A stretch of 35,298 nt of DNA, taken from assembly GCA_964405115.1 (NCBI GenBank), contig CAYOMN010000004.1, positions 1 to 35,298 of the forward strand. The letters run 5' to 3'. The position numbers and the translations under genes are program-made. Shown here piece by piece: positions 9,654 through 30,652 of the stretch (position 1 is its first letter; each line of letters starts with the position of its first letter). The notes beneath the pieces are model-generated. The model did not search any database. It was given only the letters and a program-made list of their open reading frames with translations, and was not told where the DNA came from. The DNA is from an uncultured Candidatus Saccharibacteria bacterium. Its GTDB lineage: Bacteria; Patescibacteriota; Minisyncoccia; Phycocordibacterales; UBA1006.

Positions 9654-9666
9654 CAAGAATTAATAT

Positions 9667-9696
9667 AAAAACCATTAGTATAAACTAATGGTTTTT
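9667..9696. terminator. bidirectional hairpin between tRNA-Leu (+) and the pilin-like operon (-)
   Basis: AAAAACCATTAG, loop TATAAA, then CTAATGGTTTTT. Confidence 0.65.
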
Positions 9697-9710
9697 ATAT
9701 TAAGAAATGA

Positions 9711-10112
9711 CTATTTAGTTAAACTCATAAAACTATTTTTTGTTCCTGTGGATATGCCAAAAGTATTTTTAATAACAAAGACAAGTGACCATACACTTAG
9801 CATTACGAGTAATCCTATTAACCCCCAAAACATTTTTTGTCTCTTTTCTGCTTTTTTGGCATCATCTGAAACTCCTATATATTGAACAACACCAATAAGA
9901 AAATAAGCAAGTGCACCGAGAATGAACATTGGTATTAACCAACTATTTATAAACCTAGCAATACTCTTAGCAAGGTCTGTAATATTATTTGCACTTAAAC
10001 TGCGTATATCACCTGCAGAACCTTGATTCTGTGCATTCGCAAACGAAACAACAAAAAACTGGATAAAAAATATTAAGATAATATTTTTTATTTTTTTTAT
10101 CTTTTTATTCAT
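9711..10112 (-). CDS. secreted two-TM-helix protein, VirB2/TrbC-pilin-like (paralog P1, subtype B)
   Basis: Signal peptide ..VVSFANA-Q, then LIPMFILGALAYFLIGVVQYIG, a charged loop SDDAKKAEKRQK, and MFWGLIGLLVMLSVWSLV. It aligns closely with the 13007..13354 product. Confidence 0.7.
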   Translation of the reverse strand: MNKKIKKIKNIILIFFIQFFVVSFANAQNQGSAGDIRSLSANNITDLAKSIARFINSWLIPMFILGALAYFLIGVVQYIGVSDDAKKAEKRQKMFWGLIGLLVMLSVWSLVFVIKNTFGISTGTKNSFMSLTK

Positions 10113-10121
10113 AATAATTTA

Positions 10122-10451
10122 TTATTCATACAATTGAGGAAGTATAGGATCTCCTCCAAAAAATGTATTTGTAAAAATACCAGTAAGTCCTAAAAAGGCA
10201 ACCATAGCAAAAAGAGCAATAATTCCCCATAACATACGTTTTTTACCTTTTTCTCGTTCCTCTGAATTATCTGCATTTCTAATAAAATCTAAAATACCCC
10301 ATAAAAACATTGCCAAAGCCGCACTAAACAACAGCACCATCATTGTACCACCAAAGAACTTAGCGACTTTTCCAGAAATATCTTTTATTGTTCCAACCGC
10401 AAAGGTAAAACTCGGAAGTAATATACTAATTGTTAAAATAAACTTTTTCAT
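10122..10451 (-). CDS. secreted two-TM-helix protein, VirB2/TrbC-pilin-like (paralog P2, subtype B)
   Basis: Signal peptide MKKFILTISILLPSFTFA, TM1 MMVLLFSAALAMFLWGILDFI, loop NADNSEEREKGKKR, TM2 MLWGIIALFAMVAFLGL. A GAGGAA Shine-Dalgarno-like site lies upstream. Confidence 0.7.
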   Translation of the reverse strand: MKKFILTISILLPSFTFAVGTIKDISGKVAKFFGGTMMVLLFSAALAMFLWGILDFIRNADNSEEREKGKKRMLWGIIALFAMVAFLGLTGIFTNTFFGGDPILPQLYE

Positions 10452-10455
10452 AATA

Positions 10456-10899
10456 TTAATTTCCTCGAATTGAGTTAATTGTACCCTGTAAAGTTTGGGC
10501 TATGACATATGCACCAAGTAATATAACAGCACCTATAAACACATATAAAATTGCATCTTTTGCCGTTTTTAATTTCTCTGGATTACCCTGTGCAGCAATA
10601 AATAAATAACCTGTATAAATTATTGCAATGGCAACAAGAGGAACTCCAACTTTCATTACAATACTAAGAAGCTTCTCAACAAAAGTTGGAATATCCTTAA
10701 TTCCTCCATTTTTTAGTGGATTTTCAAGAGGTATTGAATTACTACTTGAATTTCCACCACCAAGATTAGTTTCAGCATATACAGAATGTCCAAAATTATT
10801 GATATTTACATCATTAAAAGAAATATATGTAATAATACTAAATTGACTAATAAAGATTGAGAGTAAAACGAAAATTGATATTTTTTTAATTAACTTCAT
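10456..10899 (-). CDS. secreted two-TM-helix protein, VirB2/TrbC-pilin-like (paralog P3, subtype A)
   Basis: Signal peptide to ..SVYA-E, a G/N/S-rich stretch, then VGVPLVAIAIIYTGYLFIAAQGNPEKLKTAKDAILYVFIGAVILLGAYVIA. Same layout as the C-terminus of 13510..14664. Confidence 0.7.
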   Translation of the reverse strand: MKLIKKISIFVLLSIFISQFSIITYISFNDVNINNFGHSVYAETNLGGGNSSSNSIPLENPLKNGGIKDIPTFVEKLLSIVMKVGVPLVAIAIIYTGYLFIAAQGNPEKLKTAKDAILYVFIGAVILLGAYVIAQTLQGTINSIRGN

Positions 10900-10905
10900 A
10901 TAAAT

Positions 10906-10914
10906 ATGATATCA
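10906..10914 (-). promoter_or_regulatory. extended -10 box TGATATCAT, 6 nt before the ATG of P3
   Basis: The minus strand reads TG-A-TATCAT-ATTTAT-ATG. Confidence 0.45.
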
Positions 10915-10944
10915 TGTTTTTTATAAAAAAACATTCACAAATAC

Positions 10945-10972
10945 TTGACAATAAACGTAACTGGTGTATTAT
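10945..10972 (+). promoter_or_regulatory. sigma70-like promoter for the 11012..12405 pair
   Basis: TTGACA (10945-10950), a 16-nt spacer, then TATTAT (10967-10972). Confidence 0.45.
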
Positions 10973-11011
10973 TAATTTGAATATAGATATTAACAATTAA
11001 ATAAAAAAATC

Positions 11012-11410
11012 ATGACAAAAAACATTGGAATTCTACCTATTATAGGAATAATATCTATTATTATGATTATTGTCCTTATTAGGAATTATAATGTGAATGA
11101 ATTATCTAAACACACTAAACATGAAGAAACAACCATCGAAAAAAAAATTGATAAAATTCCAATCGAAAAAAATGTTAAATTTGTTATATTAGCAAATAAC
11201 AAGTGGATAGGATACAAACTAGAAAAATCTTCCGGAAATGTATATATAGATGGTGTAAATATCAATTATCTTAAAATGAGATGGAAGACAGAGTCTAATG
11301 ATACATGGACAGAAGGTTCATCTATACTTGGAATTAATAATATAACAATATTAGAATTCAAATTAGATGGAATAAAAAAAGTAAAAGTAAAACTATTTCA
11401 AAAAAACTAA
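11012..11410 (+). CDS. small single-pass membrane protein with a beta-rich C-terminal domain (positional analogue of an NfeD partner)
   Basis: N-terminal TM helix IGILPIIGIISIIMIIVLI and a 5-nt gap to the SPFH-like gene downstream. No motif is recognised; the NfeD analogy rests on position only. Confidence 0.45.
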   Translation: MTKNIGILPIIGIISIIMIIVLIRNYNVNELSKHTKHEETTIEKKIDKIPIEKNVKFVILANNKWIGYKLEKSSGNVYIDGVNINYLKMRWKTESNDTWTEGSSILGINNITILEFKLDGIKKVKVKLFQKN

Positions 11411-11415
11411 ATAAA

Positions 11416-12405
11416 ATGGAACGAACAAATTTTTTTAAGGGAGTAATAATAAATATTATCTTTGTAACAATATTAGGTGCATTCATTGGGTCATTTATCA
11501 CATGGTGGATGACATGGATAATTGGAATAATATTTTTATTTATAGGTTATAAAACATTTAACCAATCATTGATAAAAAAACAGACAAATACATTTGTTTT
11601 GTGGTCAATGTTTGGGAAATTACAAGTAAATTCAGATAATGATTTAGGTTTATCTGATATTAGCTTACCACATTATATACCGTGGAAATTTACTGAAGAA
11701 AAATCAGAAAGAGCTGTACATGTCTATACAAAAGAAAATCTAGTGTTTGATGCTGGAGAATTCCCTGTTACATATAAACCAGATAAGTCTGAAGAGTCTG
11801 AATATGATATGATTTTATCTATCCTTATAACACTTCAGATAAATAAACCTGTAAAATTCTATAAAAAAACAGGAATGTTATCTCTTGAACATAGTCATAT
11901 ACTATCAAAAAATGACCCATGGCTTAATGATATTCAAACAGATGTGAAATCAACCTTTGAAGCACTCGGATCTGCCATAAAATACGAAGAATGGAAGAAA
12001 AAAACAGACTGGACAATAGCAAATATTGATAAAAAGTATGTCCATATACATGGAACACAGGATACATTAAAAAAAACAATTAAAAGTTATGGATTAAACG
12101 TTCTTGTTATTAAGGTAACTGCAAAAATTAATCCTACAATAAAGAAAGCAAGAGAAGAGAAGATAGAGAATATTGCTAAAGTTGAAGCTATGAAGATACT
12201 ACAAGAAGGAAAAGATAAGATTATTATTAACCATCTTAAAACGCTTGGGATTACAGATTATCAAAGTCAAGAAGCAAAAGAGGCAGTTCAAAACAAGATG
12301 ATAATGATGGATGAATATAAAGATGAAAGATTTGTAAAAATATCAGGTGTTAGTGGTGACGCAAATATACTAGAAGCAATAATAGCTATGTTAAGCAAAA
12401 AATAA
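11416..12405 (+). CDS. membrane-anchored SPFH/band-7-like protein
   Basis: Two N-terminal TM helices, then an SPFH-like order: FVLWSMFGKL, HYIPWKF, VHVYTKENLVFDAGEFPVTY, ILITLQINKPVKFYKK, and YGLNVLVIKVTAKINPTIKKAREEKIENIAKVEA (resembling yGI.v..v.i.di..P..v..A.e...Ae.e). Confidence 0.5.
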   Translation: MERTNFFKGVIINIIFVTILGAFIGSFITWWMTWIIGIIFLFIGYKTFNQSLIKKQTNTFVLWSMFGKLQVNSDNDLGLSDISLPHYIPWKFTEEKSERAVHVYTKENLVFDAGEFPVTYKPDKSEESEYDMILSILITLQINKPVKFYKKTGMLSLEHSHILSKNDPWLNDIQTDVKSTFEALGSAIKYEEWKKKTDWTIANIDKKYVHIHGTQDTLKKTIKSYGLNVLVIKVTAKINPTIKKAREEKIENIAKVEAMKILQEGKDKIIINHLKTLGITDYQSQEAKEAVQNKMIMMDEYKDERFVKISGVSGDANILEAIIAMLSKK

Positions 12406-12415
12406 AATTTAAAAC

Positions 12416-12441
12416 AAAAACCGGAATAAATTCCGGTTTTT
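12416..12441. terminator. bidirectional hairpin terminator
   Basis: AAAAACCGGAA, loop TAAA, then TTCCGGTTTTT. Confidence 0.7.
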
Positions 12442-12465
12442 TTATTGTATTTGTTATTTAATATT

Positions 12466-12831
12466 TTATTTAAATAAACTCGAAACATCTCCACTTTCTC
12501 CTTTTTTTATTTGAACATCGTGTAGTCCAAGTGTATTTGTCATAAGCGACATAATTCCAAAAACAGAAACCATAATAACCATACCTATAACACCCCAAAG
12601 CATATGACTTTTACCCTGTTCTATATCTGTACCACCACCATTACCAGATTTTGTTTGAAAAAATTTAAATAATCCAATTGTAAATTGAACAAAAGCAAGT
12701 GAGAATAAAACTATTATCAATGGGTTAATAATCTGTTTATTTATACGAGCTAATAATGCAGTAAAGTCTGAAGGTCCAGCTGCATAAACAAAAGGAATTA
12801 GAATATATTCATTTATTATTTGTCTTAACAT
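12466..12831 (-). CDS. two-TM-helix protein, VirB2/TrbC-pilin-like (paralog P4, subtype B; weak signal peptide)
   Basis: INPLIIVLFSLAFVQFTIGLFKFF, loop QTKSGNGGGTDIEQGKSH, then MLWGVIGMVIMVSVFGIM. It has the same MLWG motif as P2. Confidence 0.65.
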   Translation of the reverse strand: MLRQIINEYILIPFVYAAGPSDFTALLARINKQIINPLIIVLFSLAFVQFTIGLFKFFQTKSGNGGGTDIEQGKSHMLWGVIGMVIMVSVFGIMSLMTNTLGLHDVQIKKGESGDVSSLFK

Positions 12832-12837
12832 ATTTAA

Positions 12838-12846
12838 ATTATATCA
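12838..12846 (-). promoter_or_regulatory. perfect extended -10 box TGATATAAT, 6 nt before the ATG of P4
   Basis: The minus strand reads TG-A-TATAAT-TTAAAT-ATG. Confidence 0.5.
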
Positions 12847-12970
12847 TTAAATGAATACCAAATACAAGGATAAAAATAAATACTACATTTTAACAATTTA
12901 TTATAAATACATTAAGTAATATTTAAAATTCATACTTTCATTGGAATAACAAAAATGAAAGTTTATTTAA

Positions 12971-12996
12971 AAAAAATACCAAAAGGTATTTTTTTT
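12971..12996 (-). terminator. terminator after P5, with a second hairpin at 12934..12962
   Basis: AAAAAATACC, loop AAAA, then GGTATTTTTT, with a T-run on the minus strand. The second hairpin is ACTTTCATT / AATGAAAGT, just downstream. Confidence 0.65.
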
Positions 12997-13006
12997 AAAA
13001 ATTCAA

Positions 13007-13354
13007 TTAGAATGCATTTACTCCAGGAATATTTGATCCTGTTATATCTGAATTACCTACCTGAAAAGTTCTTTGAAATACTCCAATTATTCCCCATACA
13101 GATAACATAATAAATAAACCAATTAAACCCTGAACAATAACTGTTTTATACTTTGACTTATCATCACCATCAGCTGCAATAACATATCTTACTATCCCAT
13201 ATAGGAAATAAGCTAAAGCAGCAGCGATTAAGAAAGGAATAAGCCTATCAACAAAAGCACGCAAAGTAGATAAAATTGAGAAAGCGTTTGCACCTTGGGC
13301 AAATGTCAGAATAGGAACACCTAATAGAGCAGCTCCTGTAATAATTTTTTTCAT
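13007..13354 (-). CDS. secreted two-TM-helix protein, VirB2/TrbC-pilin-like (paralog P5, subtype B)
   Basis: Signal peptide MKKIITGAALLGVPILTFA-Q, then LIPFLIAAALAYFLYGIVRYV, loop AADGDDKSKYK, and GLIGLFIMLSVWGIIGV. Confidence 0.7.
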   Translation of the reverse strand: MKKIITGAALLGVPILTFAQGANAFSILSTLRAFVDRLIPFLIAAALAYFLYGIVRYVIAADGDDKSKYKTVIVQGLIGLFIMLSVWGIIGVFQRTFQVGNSDITGSNIPGVNAF

Positions 13355-13440
13355 ATTTTCATAACTAAATTAACTAATAATAATCGATTACTATCTTCTA
13401 CTAACTGCATATTATATGCACCTTATAAGAAGCCATGTCT

Positions 13441-13470
13441 ATTATAACATATAATATAAAATACTGACAA
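13441..13470 (-). promoter_or_regulatory. promoter of P5 (TTGTCA, 18-nt spacer, TG-T-TATAAT) giving a leader of about 80 nt
   Basis: On the minus strand TTGTCA is at 13470..13465 and TGTTATAAT at 13449..13441. Confidence 0.5.
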
Positions 13471-13509
13471 GTAAATATTAATACTTTCTTTATAAATAAG
13501 AATCTAAAA

Positions 13510-14664
13510 TTAATTTCTCATTCCAAGAAATGAAAAGCCTTTTTGAACACCAAGTGTAATTAAAATTGTTTTTACAATAATCCATGCAAGCATAATAATT
13601 ATAACACCAATAACTAACTTAGTCATTGCATTTTTTGCTGCTGTTCTTTTTTTAGGATCAGCGGCACTAGAAATATATAAAAATCCAGCATATGTAAACA
13701 TAATTGCAGAAATTGGAAGAACTAATACAAAGATATAATTAATGATACGATTTAACATACCCATAAAATCAGAAAAACCACACATTGGACCATTATTATA
13801 ACCACACTTTGTACTTACAAGACCATCTCCATCATTAATCCCACCACCAGAGTTACTACCAACCCCTGTTGTAGAATTATTCCAATTATTAGAACCACCA
13901 CCAGAGTTTGGTACCTTAGTTCCAATTATATATGTTTGAATTGGTAATTCGAATTGACTATCCTTATAATTAATAGTTATTTTATATTCACCAGACTTAA
14001 GTACAGGTGTTCTGTTTTTTGTTGTTGCCGATATTGTATTATTTACACTTAAATTGAAATCTGAATTAAGTACCATTATCTCACCTGTTTTATCCGTACG
14101 CTTTAAAACAATCTCTACCTTACCTGTTTCGCCATCTATAACGTCAGCAGATATATCATAATAATAATTATTATTACCTTGTTTTTTTAAATTAACACTC
14201 CAATTTTCAAATACATCATGTTCATTAACAACTGCACTTTTTGGAACACTGTCTAAGAGACAATAGTCTCCACCACTTGAATAACAAGTCGAAATTGGTT
14301 TTCCTTTACTTGAATTAGAAAAATAAACACTATATTGATTGTCACTATTCACAACATATCCAGAAGTCATACCATTACACGTTGGATATTTTAGTTTAAA
14401 ATGTTCTGCTCCTGTTGTTACACTAAAATTACATAAGTCTACCTTATTATTTCCATACTTTAATATTAAATAGTACACTCCATTACTATCTGGCTCCCAC
14501 CAACCGTCAAGATTATAATAAAAATATCCTTTAGATGAAGTATCTACACTACTACTATTTATATCAAAATTTACAGTTTTCTCCTGTGCAAAAATACTAT
14601 GTGAAAAGTTTACTGAAATTAAAATAATAAACAAAAAAATAATATATTTGAATATGTTTTTCAT
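13510..14664 (-). CDS. secreted fusion protein: beta-rich Cys-containing extracellular domain + G/N/S linker + VirB2/TrbC-pilin-like two-TM module (paralog P6, subtype A)
   Basis: Signal peptide to ..SIFA-Q. About 250 aa rich in Y/N/S/T with 8 Cys, then linker NSGGGSNNWNNSTTGVGSNSGGGINDGDG. The C-terminus is FVLVLPISAIMFTYAGFLYISSAADPKKRTAAKNAMTKLVIGVIIIMLAWIIV. Confidence 0.7.
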   Translation of the reverse strand: MKNIFKYIIFLFIILISVNFSHSIFAQEKTVNFDINSSSVDTSSKGYFYYNLDGWWEPDSNGVYYLILKYGNNKVDLCNFSVTTGAEHFKLKYPTCNGMTSGYVVNSDNQYSVYFSNSSKGKPISTCYSSGGDYCLLDSVPKSAVVNEHDVFENWSVNLKKQGNNNYYYDISADVIDGETGKVEIVLKRTDKTGEIMVLNSDFNLSVNNTISATTKNRTPVLKSGEYKITINYKDSQFELPIQTYIIGTKVPNSGGGSNNWNNSTTGVGSNSGGGINDGDGLVSTKCGYNNGPMCGFSDFMGMLNRIINYIFVLVLPISAIMFTYAGFLYISSAADPKKRTAAKNAMTKLVIGVIIIMLAWIIVKTILITLGVQKGFSFLGMRN

Positions 14665-14672
14665 ATAAATTT

Positions 14673-14681
14673 ATTATAACA
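14673..14681 (-). promoter_or_regulatory. perfect extended -10 box TGTTATAAT, 8 nt before the ATG of P6
   Basis: The minus strand reads TG-T-TATAAT-AAATTTAT-ATG. Confidence 0.5.
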
Positions 14682-16639: not shown

Positions 16640-17530
16640 TTATATATAATTTTTTAAAACCTTAGCAGAATTATATAATTTATTTAATTCTTCTTTCTCA
16701 ATCTTTATCTTCTTTAAGTCGAAAGAAAAACCATTTTTAGATAGCCTTACTGGAATAGATAATGCAACATTTGATAACCCATATTCTCCAAGCAGCGAAA
16801 CAGATAGTGGTAAATATTCTATTTTTTCTGATAATAAAACATCAAAAATATCACAAACAGCAGAAGCAATACCAAAATAAGTAGAACCCTTCCCTTCTAA
16901 TATTTCATAAGCTTCTCTCCTTACAGAATCTTCTATTTTTTTCTTCTTTTCATGAGAATAGTCTGATGAGTGTTCATAATTAGACCAATCAACAAACGAA
17001 GAATCTCCATGTTCACCAAGAACATAAACTGGCGTTCCGTCGTGATTTGTACATTCTTTTTCGTCTAATTTTGATAGTAATCTTTGTGTATCTAATAATG
17101 TACCAGTACCAAATACATGTCCAACGGGAAGTTCAAAAATCTTAGTGGCCAAATGTGTCAATATATCAACTGGATTTGATACCATTATAACCAAAGCTGT
17201 TTTTTTTATCTCACCAATATTTTTTTGTATCGATCTTAATATATTTTTGTTTACATCTGTTAATTCAAGTCTAGTTTGACCTGGTTTTTGTGCCACTCCA
17301 GCAGTAATAACAAAAATATCTATGTCAGAAAAATTATCTTTAAAACTACGAGTAGAAATATTACTTTTATCACAAAGTGGTAACATATCAGAAATATCTA
17401 AATATTGTGCCCGCAAAAGTTTTTCATTAATATCAACAAGAACAAATTCAACATTTAGGTCCTTATGAACTCCTATTGCTACTATATGAGATCCAACATT
17501 ACCAGCCCCTATTACAGCTATCTTTTTCAT
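16640..17530 (-). CDS. ldh: L-lactate dehydrogenase (LDH/MDH superfamily; Gln at the substrate-discriminating position)
   Basis: Rossmann motif KIAVIGAGNVGS. GVAQKPGQTRLEL has Q rather than R, as in LDHs. The catalytic His lies in GEHGDS. Confidence 0.8.
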   Translation of the reverse strand: MKKIAVIGAGNVGSHIVAIGVHKDLNVEFVLVDINEKLLRAQYLDISDMLPLCDKSNISTRSFKDNFSDIDIFVITAGVAQKPGQTRLELTDVNKNILRSIQKNIGEIKKTALVIMVSNPVDILTHLATKIFELPVGHVFGTGTLLDTQRLLSKLDEKECTNHDGTPVYVLGEHGDSSFVDWSNYEHSSDYSHEKKKKIEDSVRREAYEILEGKGSTYFGIASAVCDIFDVLLSEKIEYLPLSVSLLGEYGLSNVALSIPVRLSKNGFSFDLKKIKIEKEELNKLYNSAKVLKNYI

Positions 17531-19699: not shown

Positions 19700-20395
19700 T
19701 TATTTTTTACTTGTAGTGTAATGATACTTACCTTCTTTATCATCTCTAATAATTCTACCCTTATCAATATGAACAACTCTTTTCTTTAACTCATCAACTA
19801 CAAAACTGTTATGAGTAGATAAGATAACGGTAGTCCCTAATTCATTTATCTTTTTTAATATATTAATAACAGAATGAACACTTGATGGATCAAGTGATCC
19901 AGTTGGCTCATCTGCTATCAATAAATCTGGCTGATTAATTATTGCACGTGCAATTGCAAGTCTTTGCTGTTCTCCTCCAGATAACTCACTTGGAAAATAA
20001 AACATTTTATCTTCTAATCCTACAAGCTCAAGTGCATGCGGTACGTCTGCTCTTATTTCATCATCTGTTTTTCCAACCATTTCCATTGCAAATGATACAT
20101 TTTCATATACTGTCTTATCTTCAAGTAATTTAAAATCTTGAAATACTACACCTATACGCTGTCTATATCTAGGAATATCACCAGCTCTTAGATTATGAAT
20201 ATTTACACCATCAAAGTGTACGGATCCCTCAGTTGGTTCCTCTTCTGTAAGAAGAATCTTTAATAAGGTTGTTTTACCTGCACCAGAGGGTCCAATCAAA
20301 CTAATAAATTCTCCATCATCTATAGATAAATCTATATTATACAAAGATGTATTCCTTTGTTGGTATATCTTCGAAACATTCTCAAACTTAATCAT
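19700..20395 (-). CDS. ftsE: cell-division ATP-binding protein FtsE
   Basis: Walker A GPSGAGKTT, signature LSGGEQQR and Walker B LLIADEPTGSLD. Confidence 0.9.
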   Translation of the reverse strand: MIKFENVSKIYQQRNTSLYNIDLSIDDGEFISLIGPSGAGKTTLLKILLTEEEPTEGSVHFDGVNIHNLRAGDIPRYRQRIGVVFQDFKLLEDKTVYENVSFAMEMVGKTDDEIRADVPHALELVGLEDKMFYFPSELSGGEQQRLAIARAIINQPDLLIADEPTGSLDPSSVHSVINILKKINELGTTVILSTHNSFVVDELKKRVVHIDKGRIIRDDKEGKYHYTTSKK

Positions 20396-20894: not shown

Positions 20895-21893
20895 TTAAAT
20901 AAGTCCAACCTTTTCTCTTATTTCTTTCATTTTACTTTTTACAATCTTCTGAACTTTTCTATTCCCTTCATCAATAATTTGACGAACAATTCCAGGATTT
21001 TCTTCATAGTATTTTCTCTTTTTTCGCATTGGCTCAATAAGCTCTAAATAATTTTCCAAAAGAATCTTTTTGGAATCACCATATCCAAGACCTCCATCTT
21101 CATAACCTTTCTTAATTTCAGAAAGCTGTGGTTCCGATGTAATTAATTTATGTAAAGCAAAAACATTACAATCCTCTGGATTTTTCTTTTCTTCAGGTTT
21201 TTTAGAATCAGTTATGATTCCCATAATTGCTTTTTTAATTTCTTTATCTGTTCCAAATAATGGGATAATATTTCCATATGATTTTGACATCTTATCACCA
21301 TCTATGCCAGGAACAACTGCAACTTCTTCTTTGATATATTCACTTGGTTCAACAAAAGTCTCTCCATATATATTATTAAATTTACGTGCAATCTCTCGTG
21401 CCATCTCAACATGTTGAATCTGATCTCTCCCAACAGGAATAACTTCTGCCTGTGGTAAAAGAATATCTGCTGCCATTAATATAGGATAATCAAAAAGACC
21501 AACAGAAGCATCAACTCCCCTAGCAACCCTATCTTTGAAGGCATGAGCACGTTCCAGCCATGGAACTGTAACAAGGCAATTAAACATCCAGGCTAACTCT
21601 GTAACTTCTGGAATTGAAGATTGCCTATAAAATATAGTCTTTTCTGGATCTAAACCAATGGCAAGATAATCTAAGATGAGATTATGAATAGACAACTTTA
21701 ATTCATTTTTATCATGCATTGTAGTCATTGCATGAAAATCTGCAATAAAAATATACATATTGAACTCATCTTGCATGTCAATTGTTGGCTTCAACATACC
21801 AAAATAATTTCCAAGATGTGGACTACCGGTCGGCTTAATACCAGATAATGCTATCTTTTTTCTATTATTATTTCTTTCCATGAAACTAAACAT
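20895..21893 (-). CDS. trpS: tryptophan--tRNA ligase
   Basis: HIGH-region variant GSPHLGNYFG, a KMSKS motif, and class Ic size and order. Confidence 0.92.
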   Translation of the reverse strand: MFSFMERNNNRKKIALSGIKPTGSPHLGNYFGMLKPTIDMQDEFNMYIFIADFHAMTTMHDKNELKLSIHNLILDYLAIGLDPEKTIFYRQSSIPEVTELAWMFNCLVTVPWLERAHAFKDRVARGVDASVGLFDYPILMAADILLPQAEVIPVGRDQIQHVEMAREIARKFNNIYGETFVEPSEYIKEEVAVVPGIDGDKMSKSYGNIIPLFGTDKEIKKAIMGIITDSKKPEEKKNPEDCNVFALHKLITSEPQLSEIKKGYEDGGLGYGDSKKILLENYLELIEPMRKKRKYYEENPGIVRQIIDEGNRKVQKIVKSKMKEIREKVGLI

Positions 21894-22734
21894 TATGAAC
21901 TATACGAGTTGGATAAGGTATCTCAATTCCATGTTCTTCAAAAATTAATTTAAGTCTACGACGCATTTCACCAGTAATACCATACTGTGTTTTTGGTAAA
22001 ACCTTACCGCTTATATGTATAATAATTGAAGATTCGCCAAAATCATCAACCCTCAAAAAGTGAGGAGCTTCTAATATATCATCAGAAAACTTTGGATCTT
22101 CTGAAATACCAAGTCCTACTTTATTAATTATATCTTCTAATTTATCTATATCTGTATTATATCCAACACCTATTTTAAAATCTACCTTTGAAAAATCTTT
22201 CGATTTATTTGATGCAACTTTTATTTCACTATTCGGAACATAATGAATTGTACCATCTATTTCTCTAAGTTTTGTAACTCTAAGAGTCATATCTTCTACT
22301 GTTCCACAATATTTACCAGTACAAATGTAATCTCCAATTCTATACTGATTTTCTGCTAAAATGAATAAACCAGTAATAATATCTTTTACGAGTGATTGAG
22401 AACCAAAACCCACAGCGACACCAAGTATACCTGCACCTGTTATTAAACCACCAACTGGAACATTAAATTCTGCTAAAATAGTTATGGTTGCAGTTATCCA
22501 AATTACAATTCCAAAAAAGCTATGTGAAATCTTTATAAGTGTATCTTCACGTTTTTTTTCCTCTATTTGAGTTGTATATGATGATCTTATTACTGCACTC
22601 CGAATAAATCTATCTAAAATTTTATTTAAAAATTTAAAAAGTAACCAAGCAATAACTATTATTGCTAATAATCTTATACCATGTTCAGACAACCAATCTT
22701 TCGTAAAAAGAAATGTATTTAGTAATATTTTCAT
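21886..22734 (-). CDS. mechanosensitive ion channel family protein (MscS-like)
   Basis: Three TM helices, then GFGSQSLVKDIITGLFILAENQYRIGDYI and a beta-domain. It overlaps trpS by 8 nt. Confidence 0.88.
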   Translation of the reverse strand: MKILLNTFLFTKDWLSEHGIRLLAIIVIAWLLFKFLNKILDRFIRSAVIRSSYTTQIEEKKREDTLIKISHSFFGIVIWITATITILAEFNVPVGGLITGAGILGVAVGFGSQSLVKDIITGLFILAENQYRIGDYICTGKYCGTVEDMTLRVTKLREIDGTIHYVPNSEIKVASNKSKDFSKVDFKIGVGYNTDIDKLEDIINKVGLGISEDPKFSDDILEAPHFLRVDDFGESSIIIHISGKVLPKTQYGITGEMRRRLKLIFEEHGIEIPYPTRIVHNV

Positions 22735-22826: not shown

Positions 22827-23663
22827 TTATCCAATTAAATCATTTACTTCCATATTTAACTCTTTTGCAAGTGAAATAGAACACTTCAATTTACTAACAA
22901 AATCATCAATTGTGTAATATTTTAAATCCTTAACTAAAATAAGTTTCTCAGAGGCCATCTTTTTTAAAATAGTCTGTGTAATAGACGATAATGTAGTTAC
23001 TGGGTATAATTTCTTTTCATAAACTATCTTCATTAGATTTATATATTCTGGAAAACTCCATCCCATTAGTTGCATATCACGATGTTTAACATAATTAATT
23101 GCACTATCAGTAAATAATGTATTTGTTATTAACCACATATAATACTCACTATTATCACCTCTGTTTTTTGCTTTTCTTTTTATATCTTGTAAACGTGCAT
23201 CAGCATACATGATCTGATTAATGTGTGTTTTTGTTTTAAAATCATTCCTATATTTTGCCTCAACAATAAATATTACATTTCCTTTTTTAGCTATAACATC
23301 AATTTCATGACTAACACCCTCGCCCTCAAGATAAACGTTAGTATCAACTTCATAATCCATTTCTCTAAACAAAGAAGCAACATATTGCTCAAACATAAAC
23401 CCAGATGGACCTAATATGGACAAACCTCTCTCTAATCCGTATAAAGCTGCAAGCCCTGGATCATATTCATATAAAAGATCTCTTACTTTAGAAAAAATAT
23501 CATTTGTTGATACTTTTGATTTCATTGAACTAGAAACAACATTACAAATATTCTTAATCATTGATTCTGATGTACCAATTATATTTAAAGATCGACAAAG
23601 CTTGTTTGAATCATATAGTTCTTCAAAACCATTTCTTTTTATTACTTTCACAGATTTCTTCAT
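22827..23663 (-). CDS. ATP-cone domain fused to an Mrr-like PD-(D/E)xK restriction-endonuclease domain
   Basis: N-terminus MKKSVKVIKRNGFEELYDSNKLCRSL (ATP-cone). Core FEQYVASLFREMDYEV...HEIDVIAKKGNVIFIVEAKYR (Mrr_cat-like D..E-x-K). I prefer the Met at 23663 because TGGTATTAT lies 7 nt upstream; the ORF-track start is 23690. Confidence 0.75.
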   Translation of the reverse strand: MKKSVKVIKRNGFEELYDSNKLCRSLNIIGTSESMIKNICNVVSSSMKSKVSTNDIFSKVRDLLYEYDPGLAALYGLERGLSILGPSGFMFEQYVASLFREMDYEVDTNVYLEGEGVSHEIDVIAKKGNVIFIVEAKYRNDFKTKTHINQIMYADARLQDIKRKAKNRGDNSEYYMWLITNTLFTDSAINYVKHRDMQLMGWSFPEYINLMKIVYEKKLYPVTTLSSITQTILKKMASEKLILVKDLKYYTIDDFVSKLKCSISLAKELNMEVNDLIG

Positions 23664-23694
23664 CTTCATTATAATACCATTAAAAAACATAAAG

Positions 23695-29563: not shown

Positions 29564-30652
29564 ATGAACATTTTATATATAATATTAACAATAATTTTTA
29601 TTGGGCTATTAATCTGGCTTATTTTTGAAGTTAAAAAAAGTCAAACAAAAAAACCTGCCGAAGATTCAAATGCCATGCAAATGTTATTGCAACAAATGAA
29701 CACTCTACGGGAATCTATGGAAGACAAAATTACCGGCTCAAACCGTGATATGTCGCGAGCGGTCAAAACACAATTTTCAGAATCGCAAAAACTAATACAA
29801 ACAATAAATGAGCAAGTTTCAAAACAACTCATGGATGTGAATAAGCAAATCGCAGAAACACAAGAATCAAACAAACAAGTATTCAATCTTGCAAGTCAAC
29901 TCAGTGACTTAGAAAAAGTATTAAAAAATCAAAAAACCCGTGGAAATCTTGGTGAAATGGGACTTGAACTTATTCTTTCAAATATTCTTTCTCCATTGAA
30001 TTATAAAATGCAATACTCCTTTCCAGATGGAAAGATTGTAGATGCAATTATTAAAACAGAATCTGATAAATTTATTCCAGTGGATGCAAAATTCTCACTT
30101 GATAATTACAGACGACTTATTGATGAAAAAGACGATGAAAAAAAATTGGATCTCGAAAAAGAATTTAAAAAGGATCTAAAAAGACGAATAGATGAAACTG
30201 CACAATATATACGGCCAAAAGATGGAACACTACCTTTTGCTTTTATGTTTATACCAGCAGAAGGAATATATTATGATCTACTTGTTAATGAAGTTGGTGC
30301 AATACGTGCAAATACACGAAATCTTATTGATTATGCGTATAATGATAAAAAAGTTATTATTGTGTCACCAACAACTTTCTCTGCATATCTACAATCAGTT
30401 TTATATGGATTCAAGGCTTTCAAAATAGAGAAAACGGCAGTTGAAATCCAAAAAAATGTTGAAAAACTTGGACGTCATCTAAGCGCCTATAACGAAGCAT
30501 TTCTGAAATTAGGAAATTCACTAAGTACAACTGTTAATCACTTTGATAAAGCTTCCCATGAATTAAGACAAATAGATAAAGACGTTACAAAAATATCTGG
30601 AACATCTCCAGAACTGGAAACACTGAAAATTGAAAAACCATCAGAGAATTAA
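29564..30652 (+). CDS. rmuC: DNA recombination protein RmuC
   Basis: An N-terminal TM helix, a long coiled coil, then RGNLGEMGLELIL, DAKFSLDNY and FMFIPAEGIYY (RmuC nuclease-like core). Confidence 0.88.
   Translation: MNILYIILTIIFIGLLIWLIFEVKKSQTKKPAEDSNAMQMLLQQMNTLRESMEDKITGSNRDMSRAVKTQFSESQKLIQTINEQVSKQLMDVNKQIAETQESNKQVFNLASQLSDLEKVLKNQKTRGNLGEMGLELILSNILSPLNYKMQYSFPDGKIVDAIIKTESDKFIPVDAKFSLDNYRRLIDEKDDEKKLDLEKEFKKDLKRRIDETAQYIRPKDGTLPFAFMFIPAEGIYYDLLVNEVGAIRANTRNLIDYAYNDKKVIIVSPTTFSAYLQSVLYGFKAFKIEKTAVEIQKNVEKLGRHLSAYNEAFLKLGNSLSTTVNHFDKASHELRQIDKDVTKISGTSPELETLKIEKPSEN

Follow-up and report, generated by a model that had tools for sequence, protein, structure and literature searches.

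A conserved chromosomal cassette of six divergent VirB2-like pilin genes around an SPFH gene pair in a Paceibacteria-like lineage, probably serving a type IV secretion system encoded elsewhere

The 35,298-nucleotide contig CAYOMN010000004.1 comes from an ultrasmall, low-GC member of the Patescibacteria (the candidate phyla radiation, CPR) that is Paceibacteria-like and not one of the Saccharimonadia; the whole 35-kb contig is called the window below, and every within-window search was limited to it. It carries six minus-strand genes for exported two-helix proteins of the VirB2/TrbC pilin type, numbered from P1 (9711-10112) to P6 (13510-14664) and standing three and three around a divergent pair of genes for a small membrane protein and an SPFH protein. 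The six products are probably Sec-exported pilus subunits for a type IV secretion system (T4SS) encoded elsewhere, namely small shaft pilins and ectodomain-bearing minor pilins, with the SPFH protein as an associated scaffold. The eight genes, in the order of the cassette, are as follows.

13510..14664, minus strand: P6, a 384-aa subtype-A pilin with signal peptide, all-beta ectodomain, G/S/N-rich linker and C-terminal VirB2-like hairpin
13007..13354, minus strand: P5, a 115-aa subtype-B small pilin, the best-conserved copy
12466..12831, minus strand: P4, a 121-aa subtype-B small pilin whose N-terminal signal is short and atypical
11416..12405, plus strand: 329-aa SPFH protein (stomatin/HflK-like) with N-terminal two-helix membrane hairpin, SPFH domain and long C-terminal helix
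11012..11410, plus strand: 132-aa membrane protein with one TM pass and a beta-rich C-terminal domain
10456..10899, minus strand: P3, a 147-aa subtype-A pilin with a G/S/N-rich linker and no ectodomain, first gene of the P3-P2-P1 operon
10122..10451, minus strand: P2, a 109-aa subtype-B small pilin, starting 4 nt past P3
9711..10112, minus strand: P1, a 133-aa subtype-B small pilin, last gene of the P3-P2-P1 operon

The pilin identity had been proposed in an earlier sequence-only reading of this DNA, and profile searches bear it out. All six proteins match the Pfam family T4SS_pilin (PF18895; gathering threshold, GA, 26.6 bits), three of them above GA: P6 with 45.0 bits over residues 304-367, P2 with 40.5 bits and P3 with 33.9 bits. 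P3 also passes the GA of TrbC/VirB2 (PF04956; 29.0 bits against a GA of 27.9), a model that gave no match at E<=1 to the five other pilins. The NCBIfam model NF045849 matches all six with E values from 1.8e-10 to 3e-4, and P2 is the only one to reach its cutoff of 40 (40.3 bits). The three proteins that stay below GA for PF18895 (P1, P4 and P5) are linked to P2 as paralogs by blastp matches of 50-54 bits; in addition, relatives of P5 in metagenome-assembled genomes (MAGs) of Candidatus Paceibacterota and Patescibacteria are named "pilin" by NCBI, and the P5 orthologs carry precomputed PF18895 matches.

The six minus-strand open reading frames (ORFs) were recovered with exactly the boundaries first proposed, and in their topology a signal peptide precedes a hairpin of two helices with a short charged loop between them. 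A Kyte-Doolittle scan shows an N-terminal hydrophobic signal-like segment and two C-terminal transmembrane (TM)-like helices in P1, P2, P3, P5 and P6. In P4 the two helices are seen, whereas the short atypical N-terminal segment MLRQIINEYILIPFVYA is not flagged by the scan, so that the module of signal peptide and two TM helices, described in the sequence-only reading as common to all six, stands in full for five of them and for P4 in its helices only. The division into two subtypes and the paralogy of the six were likewise supported by pairwise blastp: the subtype-B members (P1, P2, P4 and P5) match each other at 34-61 bits (61 bits for P1-P5 and 50 bits for P4-P2), the subtype-A members (P3 and P6) do so at 56 bits, and the two subtypes are linked at 33 bits (P1-P6) and 29 bits (P4-P6). 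Pairwise identity among the paralogs is 21-38%. A local hidden Markov model (HMM) made from the six modules found no seventh copy in the window.

For comparison we fetched loci (numbered L081-L096) with 8-10 kb on each side of the looked-up gene, or up to the contig end; the longest fetched cassette loci comprise 17-20 kb in all. The order P6-P5-P4, divergent pair of membrane-protein and SPFH genes, P3-P2-P1 is found again in no fewer than six further lineages of Patescibacteria (L082, L083, L086, L087, L092 and L094), and its usual location is between infB-rbfA and a group consisting of a solute-binding protein (SBP) gene, a methyltransferase gene and gyrA. L082 has the same order as the window, with pilins of 405, 115 and 121 aa, a reversed pair of 360 and 134 aa, and pilins of 140 (TrbC-like), 111 and 112 aa, and L083 and L086 show a matching arrangement over the part covered. 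In L087 and L094 the full cassette lies between Aminotran_5-DUF4446-infB-rbfA, which is the left flank of the window, and SBP_bac_8-methyltransferase-gyrA, and in L092 the genes after it are those of RmuC, YqeY, a holin-family protein, MYG1 and Obg, each of them also present in the window. In the window and the L084 lineage it is only the right flank that differs, typA taking the place of the SBP-methyltransferase-gyrA group. The more distant L093 has kept the position, with four tandem pilins and a 489-aa pilin-fused protein (10366-11835) that consists of an N-terminal pilin-like module and a C-terminal extension; no SPFH family member was detectable at L093, where a 301-aa gene does not belong to that family. 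In most relatives (L081-L083, L087, L092, L093 and L094) the SBP_bac_8 solute-binding protein (434-445 aa) is encoded directly upstream of the large pilin and in the same orientation, with the methyltransferase and gyrA before it, and a functional link of this protein to the pilin array is possible.

It is clear from the residue-level comparison with L082 that the best match of each window pilin is its positional ortholog, with 49-57% identity for P1-P5 (P1 51%, P2 57%, P5 55%, and P4 56-57% in L082 and L083) and 33% for P6, whereas identity to the non-positional paralogs is 25-45%. In the closest relative, L084, which is a short contig holding P5 and P6 as its pilin genes, P5 is 86% and P6 63% identical, and the ratio of non-synonymous to synonymous substitution rates (dN/dS) is 0.12 for P5, 0.23 for P6 and 0.05 for TypA. 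Judged from these comparisons every pilin copy is a one-to-one ortholog under apparent purifying selection, the dN/dS figures being those of P5 and P6. We therefore regard the sixfold duplication as old, with every copy kept and the locus vertically inherited. The window has a GC content of about 29% and shows no compositional break at the pilin block, where GC is 26-31% compared with 24-36% over the whole window and where GC and skew are like those of the flanks. The term "accessory island", under which the block had been described from the sequence, must be given up: a gene order shared with at least six other lineages, orthologs that correspond one to one, a GC content like that of the flanks and dN/dS values of 0.12-0.23 describe a conserved, vertically inherited chromosomal locus. 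Nor is the block variable between the relatives that keep the cassette, a question that the sequence-only reading had raised; the cassette is the same in them and comes without a T4SS in the DNA fetched. Synteny anchored on TypA was uninformative in this respect, because the closest TypA proteins among GTDB representative genomes (from a Patescibacteria MAG, Zambryskibacteria and a "Saccharibacteria" MAG) reach no more than 65% identity and in none of these relatives do pilins adjoin typA. Exact look-ups of P6 and TypA found no identical protein on record.

The middle gene had been called SPFH-like, and the call is correct, because a Foldseek search with the AlphaFold2 (AF2) model of the 329-aa protein (predicted local distance difference test score, pLDDT, 66 overall and about 85 in the core) returned SPFH proteins (stomatin, HflK/C, prohibitin and flotillin) at all ranks from 1 to 33. 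The best match is the stomatin chain 9z7u_C (E 1.4e-7), isolated SPFH domains reach TM-scores of up to 0.73 against the model, and the sole non-SPFH matches among the top 45 are chains of the major vault protein. Pfam Band_7 (PF01145, GA 23.6) does not match the window protein; three of ten family members do match it, and the L083 ortholog scores 25.1 bits, above GA. With a profile of the family the top match among PDB sequences was HflK, aligned at the junction between the TM and SPFH domains, and the 384-aa ortholog in L092 matched the SPFH-like family profile with 99.4% probability. The family is tiny and fast-evolving: an exhaustive phmmer search of 1.84e9 proteins gave 8 representatives, and a word-indexed search found the protein itself only.

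The 132-aa gene ends 5 nt upstream of the SPFH gene, and the two are probably co-transcribed. Its product has no Pfam or NCBIfam match and none to NfeD (PF01957) at E<=1, and the same holds for the counterparts scanned from L082, L083, L086 and L087. Syntenic counterparts occur in L082, L083, L086, L087, L092, L094 and L095, and the window protein is 30% identical to that of L083. The 329-aa protein resembles known SPFH scaffolds (stomatin, HflK/C, prohibitin and flotillin) in its fold, its N-terminal membrane hairpin and its long C-terminal helix, and SPFH genes usually adjoin the gene of a small membrane partner, as here. The usual partner is NfeD, whereas the partner here is not recognisably NfeD. 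The placement inside a pilin array is a feature of the window locus that is undescribed in the literature searched.

Extensions beyond the pilin module are a trait of subtype A, always in P6 and in some lineages in P3, while the subtype-B pilins are uniformly small and 51-57% conserved. In P6 an ectodomain of about 220-270 aa is fused to the pilin module. The AF2 model places beta strands at residues 36-247, a disordered stretch at 250-295 and the hairpin at 297-332 and 337-370 (pLDDT about 70), and Foldseek returned tandem FN3/Ig-like matches for it; this reading of the ectodomain is tentative, because the model is of low confidence and the TM-scores are low. Between P6 and its distant orthologs the pilin module is 64-66% identical and the ectodomain 22-26%, and the orthologs vary in length from 374 to 535 aa (for example L092 7877-9475 and L094 10270-11877). 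The P3 ortholog of L092 (12157-13185) is enlarged to 342 aa and matches PF04956 with 30.0 bits. In the protein database searched, full-length relatives of P6 number only three, and a metagenome scan with the P6 family gave only four short loci. Just before the pilin module, a pair of cysteines (C287 and C295 in the motif CGYN..G.MCGF; window 13788-13812, P6 residues about 285-297) is invariant in all four P6 orthologs, and two more invariant cysteines (C78 and C96) lie in the ectodomain; these residues may form extracellular disulfides.

P5 differs from the other pilin genes in its upstream region, which has the following elements in the window and in the relatives.

13470..13441, minus strand: P5 promoter, TTGTCA-18-TATAAT with TG, 11 of 12 positions matched
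13371..13470, minus strand: P5 promoter and 5' leader, conserved across loci
Leader in relatives: L082 8882-8942; L083 3768-3830; L084 3002-3065; L086 2993-3054; L087 10147-10205; L092 about 9547; also in L088, L089 and L090

The promoter is found about 85 nt upstream of the ATG, and the leader that follows is composed, in this order, of AACUUCUU, a variable hairpin, GGAAGAU and the palindrome AAUAAUCGAUUAUUAUU; a 5'-terminal stem CUUCU/GGAAG encloses the variable hairpin, and the near-invariant palindrome reads (A/G)UAAUCGAUUAUUA, also written (A/G)TAATCGATTATTA or ATAATAATCGATTATTAT. The leader aligns across six loci, five of the six leaders yield the same fold, and it has been kept between loci with a protein identity of only about 55%. 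All other cassette loci have one and the same palindrome, from which the window copy departs at one base. Each cassette locus that includes the P6-P5 junction has the palindrome a single time, and the other fetched loci gave one bare 10-mer match, in Neisseria. Rfam has no match for the leader, and RNAalifold found no compensatory changes in its conserved stems; the support for it therefore comes from sequence conservation and from inner hairpins that different sequences are able to form. Since the conserved stems show no compensatory changes, a protein-binding operator or an RNA site is as likely as a structural RNA, and possible roles of the element are those of an operator, an RNA-binding site or an mRNA stabiliser. 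A 5'-terminal stem-loop would be expected to stabilise the mRNA in general bacterial mRNA decay, and an mRNA-stabilising stem-loop fits P5 as the major subunit.

The remaining transcription signals of the cassette are these.

14673..14681, minus strand: extended -10 box of P6, TGTTATAAT, ending 8 nt before the ATG and just past the typA terminator hairpin; conserved in L082 and L084
12838-12846, minus strand: extended -10 box of P4, TGATATAAT, ending 6 nt before the ATG; conserved in five loci
10906-10914, minus strand: extended -10 box of P3, TGATATCAT, ending 6 nt before the ATG
12416..12441, both strands: bidirectional terminator hairpin between P4 and the SPFH gene, which converge on it; 11-bp stem, with a T-run after it on either strand
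9660..9703, minus strand: terminator-like hairpin directly after P1

The three leaderless-type promoters predicted from the sequence are thus found as extended -10 boxes at P6, P4 and P3, conserved in orthologous loci. The same box (TGnTAnnAT), standing 5-8 nt before the ATG without a Shine-Dalgarno sequence, was seen at seven of 36 genes, four of which are unrelated to the pilins: LDH (16640-17530), FtsE (19700-20395), MscS (21886-22734) and RmuC (29564-30652). As these four share the layout, the leaderless style is normal for this genome, and the pattern implies that leaderless transcription would be widespread in it. The gaps are 4 and 9 nt within P3-P2-P1 and 155 and 175 nt within P6-P5-P4, and this layout together with the two hairpins is consistent with the at least four transcription units proposed earlier. 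A consensus promoter scan, which misses extended -10 promoters without a -35 box, gave 50 matches compared with 38 ± 6 in shuffled sequences and is not clearly above them.

Around the cassette, Pfam and NCBIfam scans identified all other sizeable ORFs of the window as housekeeping genes (ClpB, IscS-like, DUF4446, IF2, RbfA, TypA, LDH, FtsEX, TrpRS, MscS, Obg, MYG1, YqeY, TopA, RmuC, PBP2, MraW and MraZ), and tRNA-Cys and tRNA-Leu lie directly downstream of P1. Permissive scans of the few unannotated ORFs gave nothing relevant. At 22827-23690 on the minus strand a 287-aa protein combines ATP-cone and Mrr_cat/NERD restriction-endonuclease-like domains, which is an unusual pairing. Near the contig start, at 189-743 on the plus strand and upstream of miaA, tRNA-Trp and tRNA-Tyr, a 184-aa ORF encodes a tyrosine recombinase (Phage_integrase); the gene, 9 kb away from the pilins, is probably of Xer type or truncated.

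According to the preferred reading, in which the six pilins serve a T4SS encoded elsewhere, they would be exported by Sec, their signal peptides being cleaved, probably after ..FA or ..YA motifs, and would be stored as membrane hairpins with the charged loop toward the cytoplasm. Polymerisation into a pilus-like filament would then be the task of a patescibacterial T4SS of the MPF-FATA type (VirB4, VirB6, VirB3 and VirB8), predicted to be encoded elsewhere in the genome. Subtype B (P1, P2, P4 and P5) would build the shaft, with P5 as the likely major subunit on account of its promoter match, the strongest of the set, its conserved 5' stem-loop leader and its 86% identity in L084 compared with 63% for P6. 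The subtype-A proteins, that is P6 always and P3 in some lineages, would be minor or tip subunits whose fast-evolving beta-rich ectodomains on G/S/N linkers contact the host cell. In what is the most speculative step, the SPFH protein and its partner would probably create a microdomain in the membrane by which the pilin pool is organised, protected or metered. The idea that major, minor and tip subunits are encoded away from their motor was already part of the sequence-only reading, and it fits both the data and the literature.

Several results weigh against this account. Pfam and NCBIfam scans of all ORFs of at least 90 aa detected no VirB4, VirB6, VirD4, relaxase or prepilin peptidase in the contig, and no T4SS genes were found in the fetched DNA around the cassette in L081-L087, L092 and L094; the lack of secretion machinery, first remarked on for the contig, is thus also true of the fetched surroundings in cassette-bearing relatives. 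P1 (26.4 bits, 0.2 short), P5 (23.9 bits) and P4 (20.1 bits) match PF18895 below its GA, and a profile of the six modules compared with PDB sequences hit no VirB2, TraA or TrbC, only noise from hydrophobic bias such as G-protein-coupled receptors. Four sequences went into the AF2 model of P6, which is weak (mean pLDDT 52). A filament has been demonstrated for no patescibacterial PF18895 protein (PMC11665869, PMC12857230), and the literature searched holds no precedent for a link between SPFH proteins and patescibacterial pilin arrays. Finally, a distant member of the 329-aa family (26% identity; L096 8001-10152) stands in a diderm-type context beside a TonB-dependent receptor, followed by unannotated genes of 150 and 235 aa and no pilins, and because of this occurrence in a diderm genome without pilins the SPFH family is not pilin-specific.

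Part of this evidence would equally suit a membrane system independent of any T4SS, in which the six two-helix proteins and the SPFH pair form a self-contained microdomain, pore, envelope-remodelling complex or VirB4-free filament and the likeness to pilins is due only to common ancestry or topology. The absence of T4SS genes from the window and from the eight-gene-cassette loci examined speaks for it, as does the retention of the SPFH pair inside the array in every eight-gene-cassette lineage though the flanks are rearranged; half of the pilins lie below the Pfam GA, and pilin function is unknown even in Saccharibacteria (PMC11665869). We nevertheless consider such a system unlikely. PF18895/VirB2-like genes are linked to virB4 in 1,135 assemblies and are essential within the T4SS cluster of Southlakia epibionticum, and P3 and its L092 ortholog pass the TrbC/VirB2 GA. 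Gene clustering is generally loose in such small genomes, and SPFH proteins are generic scaffolds, of which the distant family member mentioned above occurs without pilins. In the particular form in which a membrane-remodelling system only mimics pilin topology, the reading is disfavoured by the family-level HMM membership. It also seems improbable to us that the cassette is a self-contained SPFH-organised filament system, VirB4-independent or loosely coupled, with five small and one or two ectodomain pilins, a stomatin-like cage and a leader-controlled P5; if this were true, pilin assembly or regulation would have a new class of module, confined to a Paceibacteria-like lineage.

Arrays of VirB2 paralogs have been explained elsewhere as repertoires of interchangeable variants that serve antigenic or host-range variation; this has been proposed for Bartonella and Anaplasma and suggested for the arrays of Patescibacteria. 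The low identity among the paralogs (21-38%, like the reported array average of 25%), their distribution over separate promoters and the rapid divergence of the P6 ectodomains, with ortholog sizes of 374-535 aa, would agree with such a repertoire, but the best match in L082 and L083 is always the positional ortholog, copy number and gene order are constant in lineages with complete cassettes, dN/dS is well below 1, and repeats, pseudogene cassettes and recombination signals are absent. The ortholog pattern therefore points to old subfunctionalisation and not to variant turnover; a variation repertoire is very unlikely, and we rejected an antigenic-variation pool on the one-to-one orthology. 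The remnant of an integrative and conjugative element (ICE), or some other horizontally acquired island inserted beside tRNA genes, is the most improbable origin that we considered. The tRNA-Cys and tRNA-Leu genes immediately downstream of P1, a truncated tyrosine-recombinase gene at 189-743 and the descent of the closest curated NCBIfam model from Mycoplasma ICEs could be taken to suggest it; however, GC content and skew are like those of the flanks, and the same chromosomal neighbourhood (infB-rbfA, with SBP-methyltransferase-gyrA or RmuC/YqeY/Obg nearby) is found in divergent lineages. The integrase, moreover, is 9 kb off, beyond the ClpB and IscS-like genes, and no relaxase, coupling protein or VirB4 was found in the contig, flanking repeats not having been searched for. 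An ICE or island origin was rejected on composition and conserved synteny.

The nearest published counterpart is in Southlakia epibionticum ML1, where Wang et al. 2023 (PMC10633639) reported essential predicted PF18895 pilins, SEML1_0014-0019, inside the T4SS cluster; a 2025 FEMS review (PMC12857230) describes that cluster as holding six sequence-divergent VirB2-like pilins. The two arrays are alike in consisting of six divergent PF18895 pilins, small two-helix proteins with signal peptides, in monoderm Patescibacteria and without a relaxase. They differ in that the S. epibionticum array adjoins VirB4 and VirB6, whereas the window array has no T4SS gene within 35 kb, is split three and three around the SPFH pair and includes one pilin with a large ectodomain; the SPFH protein of S. 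epibionticum (SEML1_0609) is unlinked to its T4SS, whereas the SPFH gene of the window is embedded in the array. On a wider scale, Quiñonero-Coronel et al. 2025 (PMC12102498) found VirB4 in 2,417 of 3,035 Patescibacteria assemblies and VirB2-like genes in 1,948 of the VirB4-positive ones, near virB4 in only 1,135. They listed 441 arrays of 2-11 pilin genes with an average identity of 25%, most abundant in Microgenomatia and Saccharimonadia, and proposed antigenic or host-range variation, which the orthology data from the window do not favour. The window set qualifies as such an array, with six genes of 21-38% identity placed three and three around two non-pilin genes and remote from virB4. Because arrays and pilins not linked to virB4 have been published, divergent VirB2-like pilins remote from their motor are an instance of a described phenomenon, and the novelty implied in the sequence-only reading does not hold (PMC12102498, PMC10633639, PMC12857230). 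The survey (PMC12102498) makes no mention of SPFH/Band 7 partners, one-to-one orthology of array members, ectodomain fusions or a P5 leader.

Other relatives are more remote. With the Gram-negative VirB2/TrbC/TraA pilins (PF04956) the window proteins share the signal peptide and the two hydrophobic helices with a short charged loop, and P3 passes GA. Yet it is the only one of the six to do so, the host is monoderm, there is no adjacent VirB machinery, one pilin is an ectodomain fusion, and the mature proteins are longer, at about 90-105 aa with cleavage sites estimated. The pilin-like conjugal transfer protein Mbov_0395/ICE_MMCAP2_0565 of Mycoplasma ICEs, represented by NF045849, is matched by all six and has a monoderm MPF-FATA context, but it is single-copy within ICE conjugation modules, and five of the six window pilins lie below the NF045849 cutoff. 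Bartonella and Anaplasma have a similar tandem amplification of divergent VirB2 genes; their arrays adjoin the virB operon and are regarded as a source of antigenic variation, in contrast to the stable one-to-one orthologs under purifying selection in the window.

What is modestly new is the SPFH pair conserved inside the array, the fusion of a pilin to an ectodomain, the one-to-one orthology of the copies and the P5 leader with its palindrome; these details leave unchanged a basic classification that is already in the literature. Patescibacteria, which live attached to other microbes, make up a large, mostly uncultured part of bacterial diversity, and their T4SS with its VirB2-like pilins is essential in the only species tested. 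That the six-pilin set of one clade is a stable unit of one-to-one orthologs favours a division of labour over a variant repertoire, and the leader on one pilin gene could mark the major subunit and its regulator. The position of the set, consistently far from any motor and around a stomatin-like scaffold, suggests a link between membrane microdomains and pilin handling. FloA, for comparison, scaffolds the type VII secretion system of S. aureus, and in these Paceibacteria-like bacteria the SPFH protein and its partner may organise the pilin pool in the membrane.

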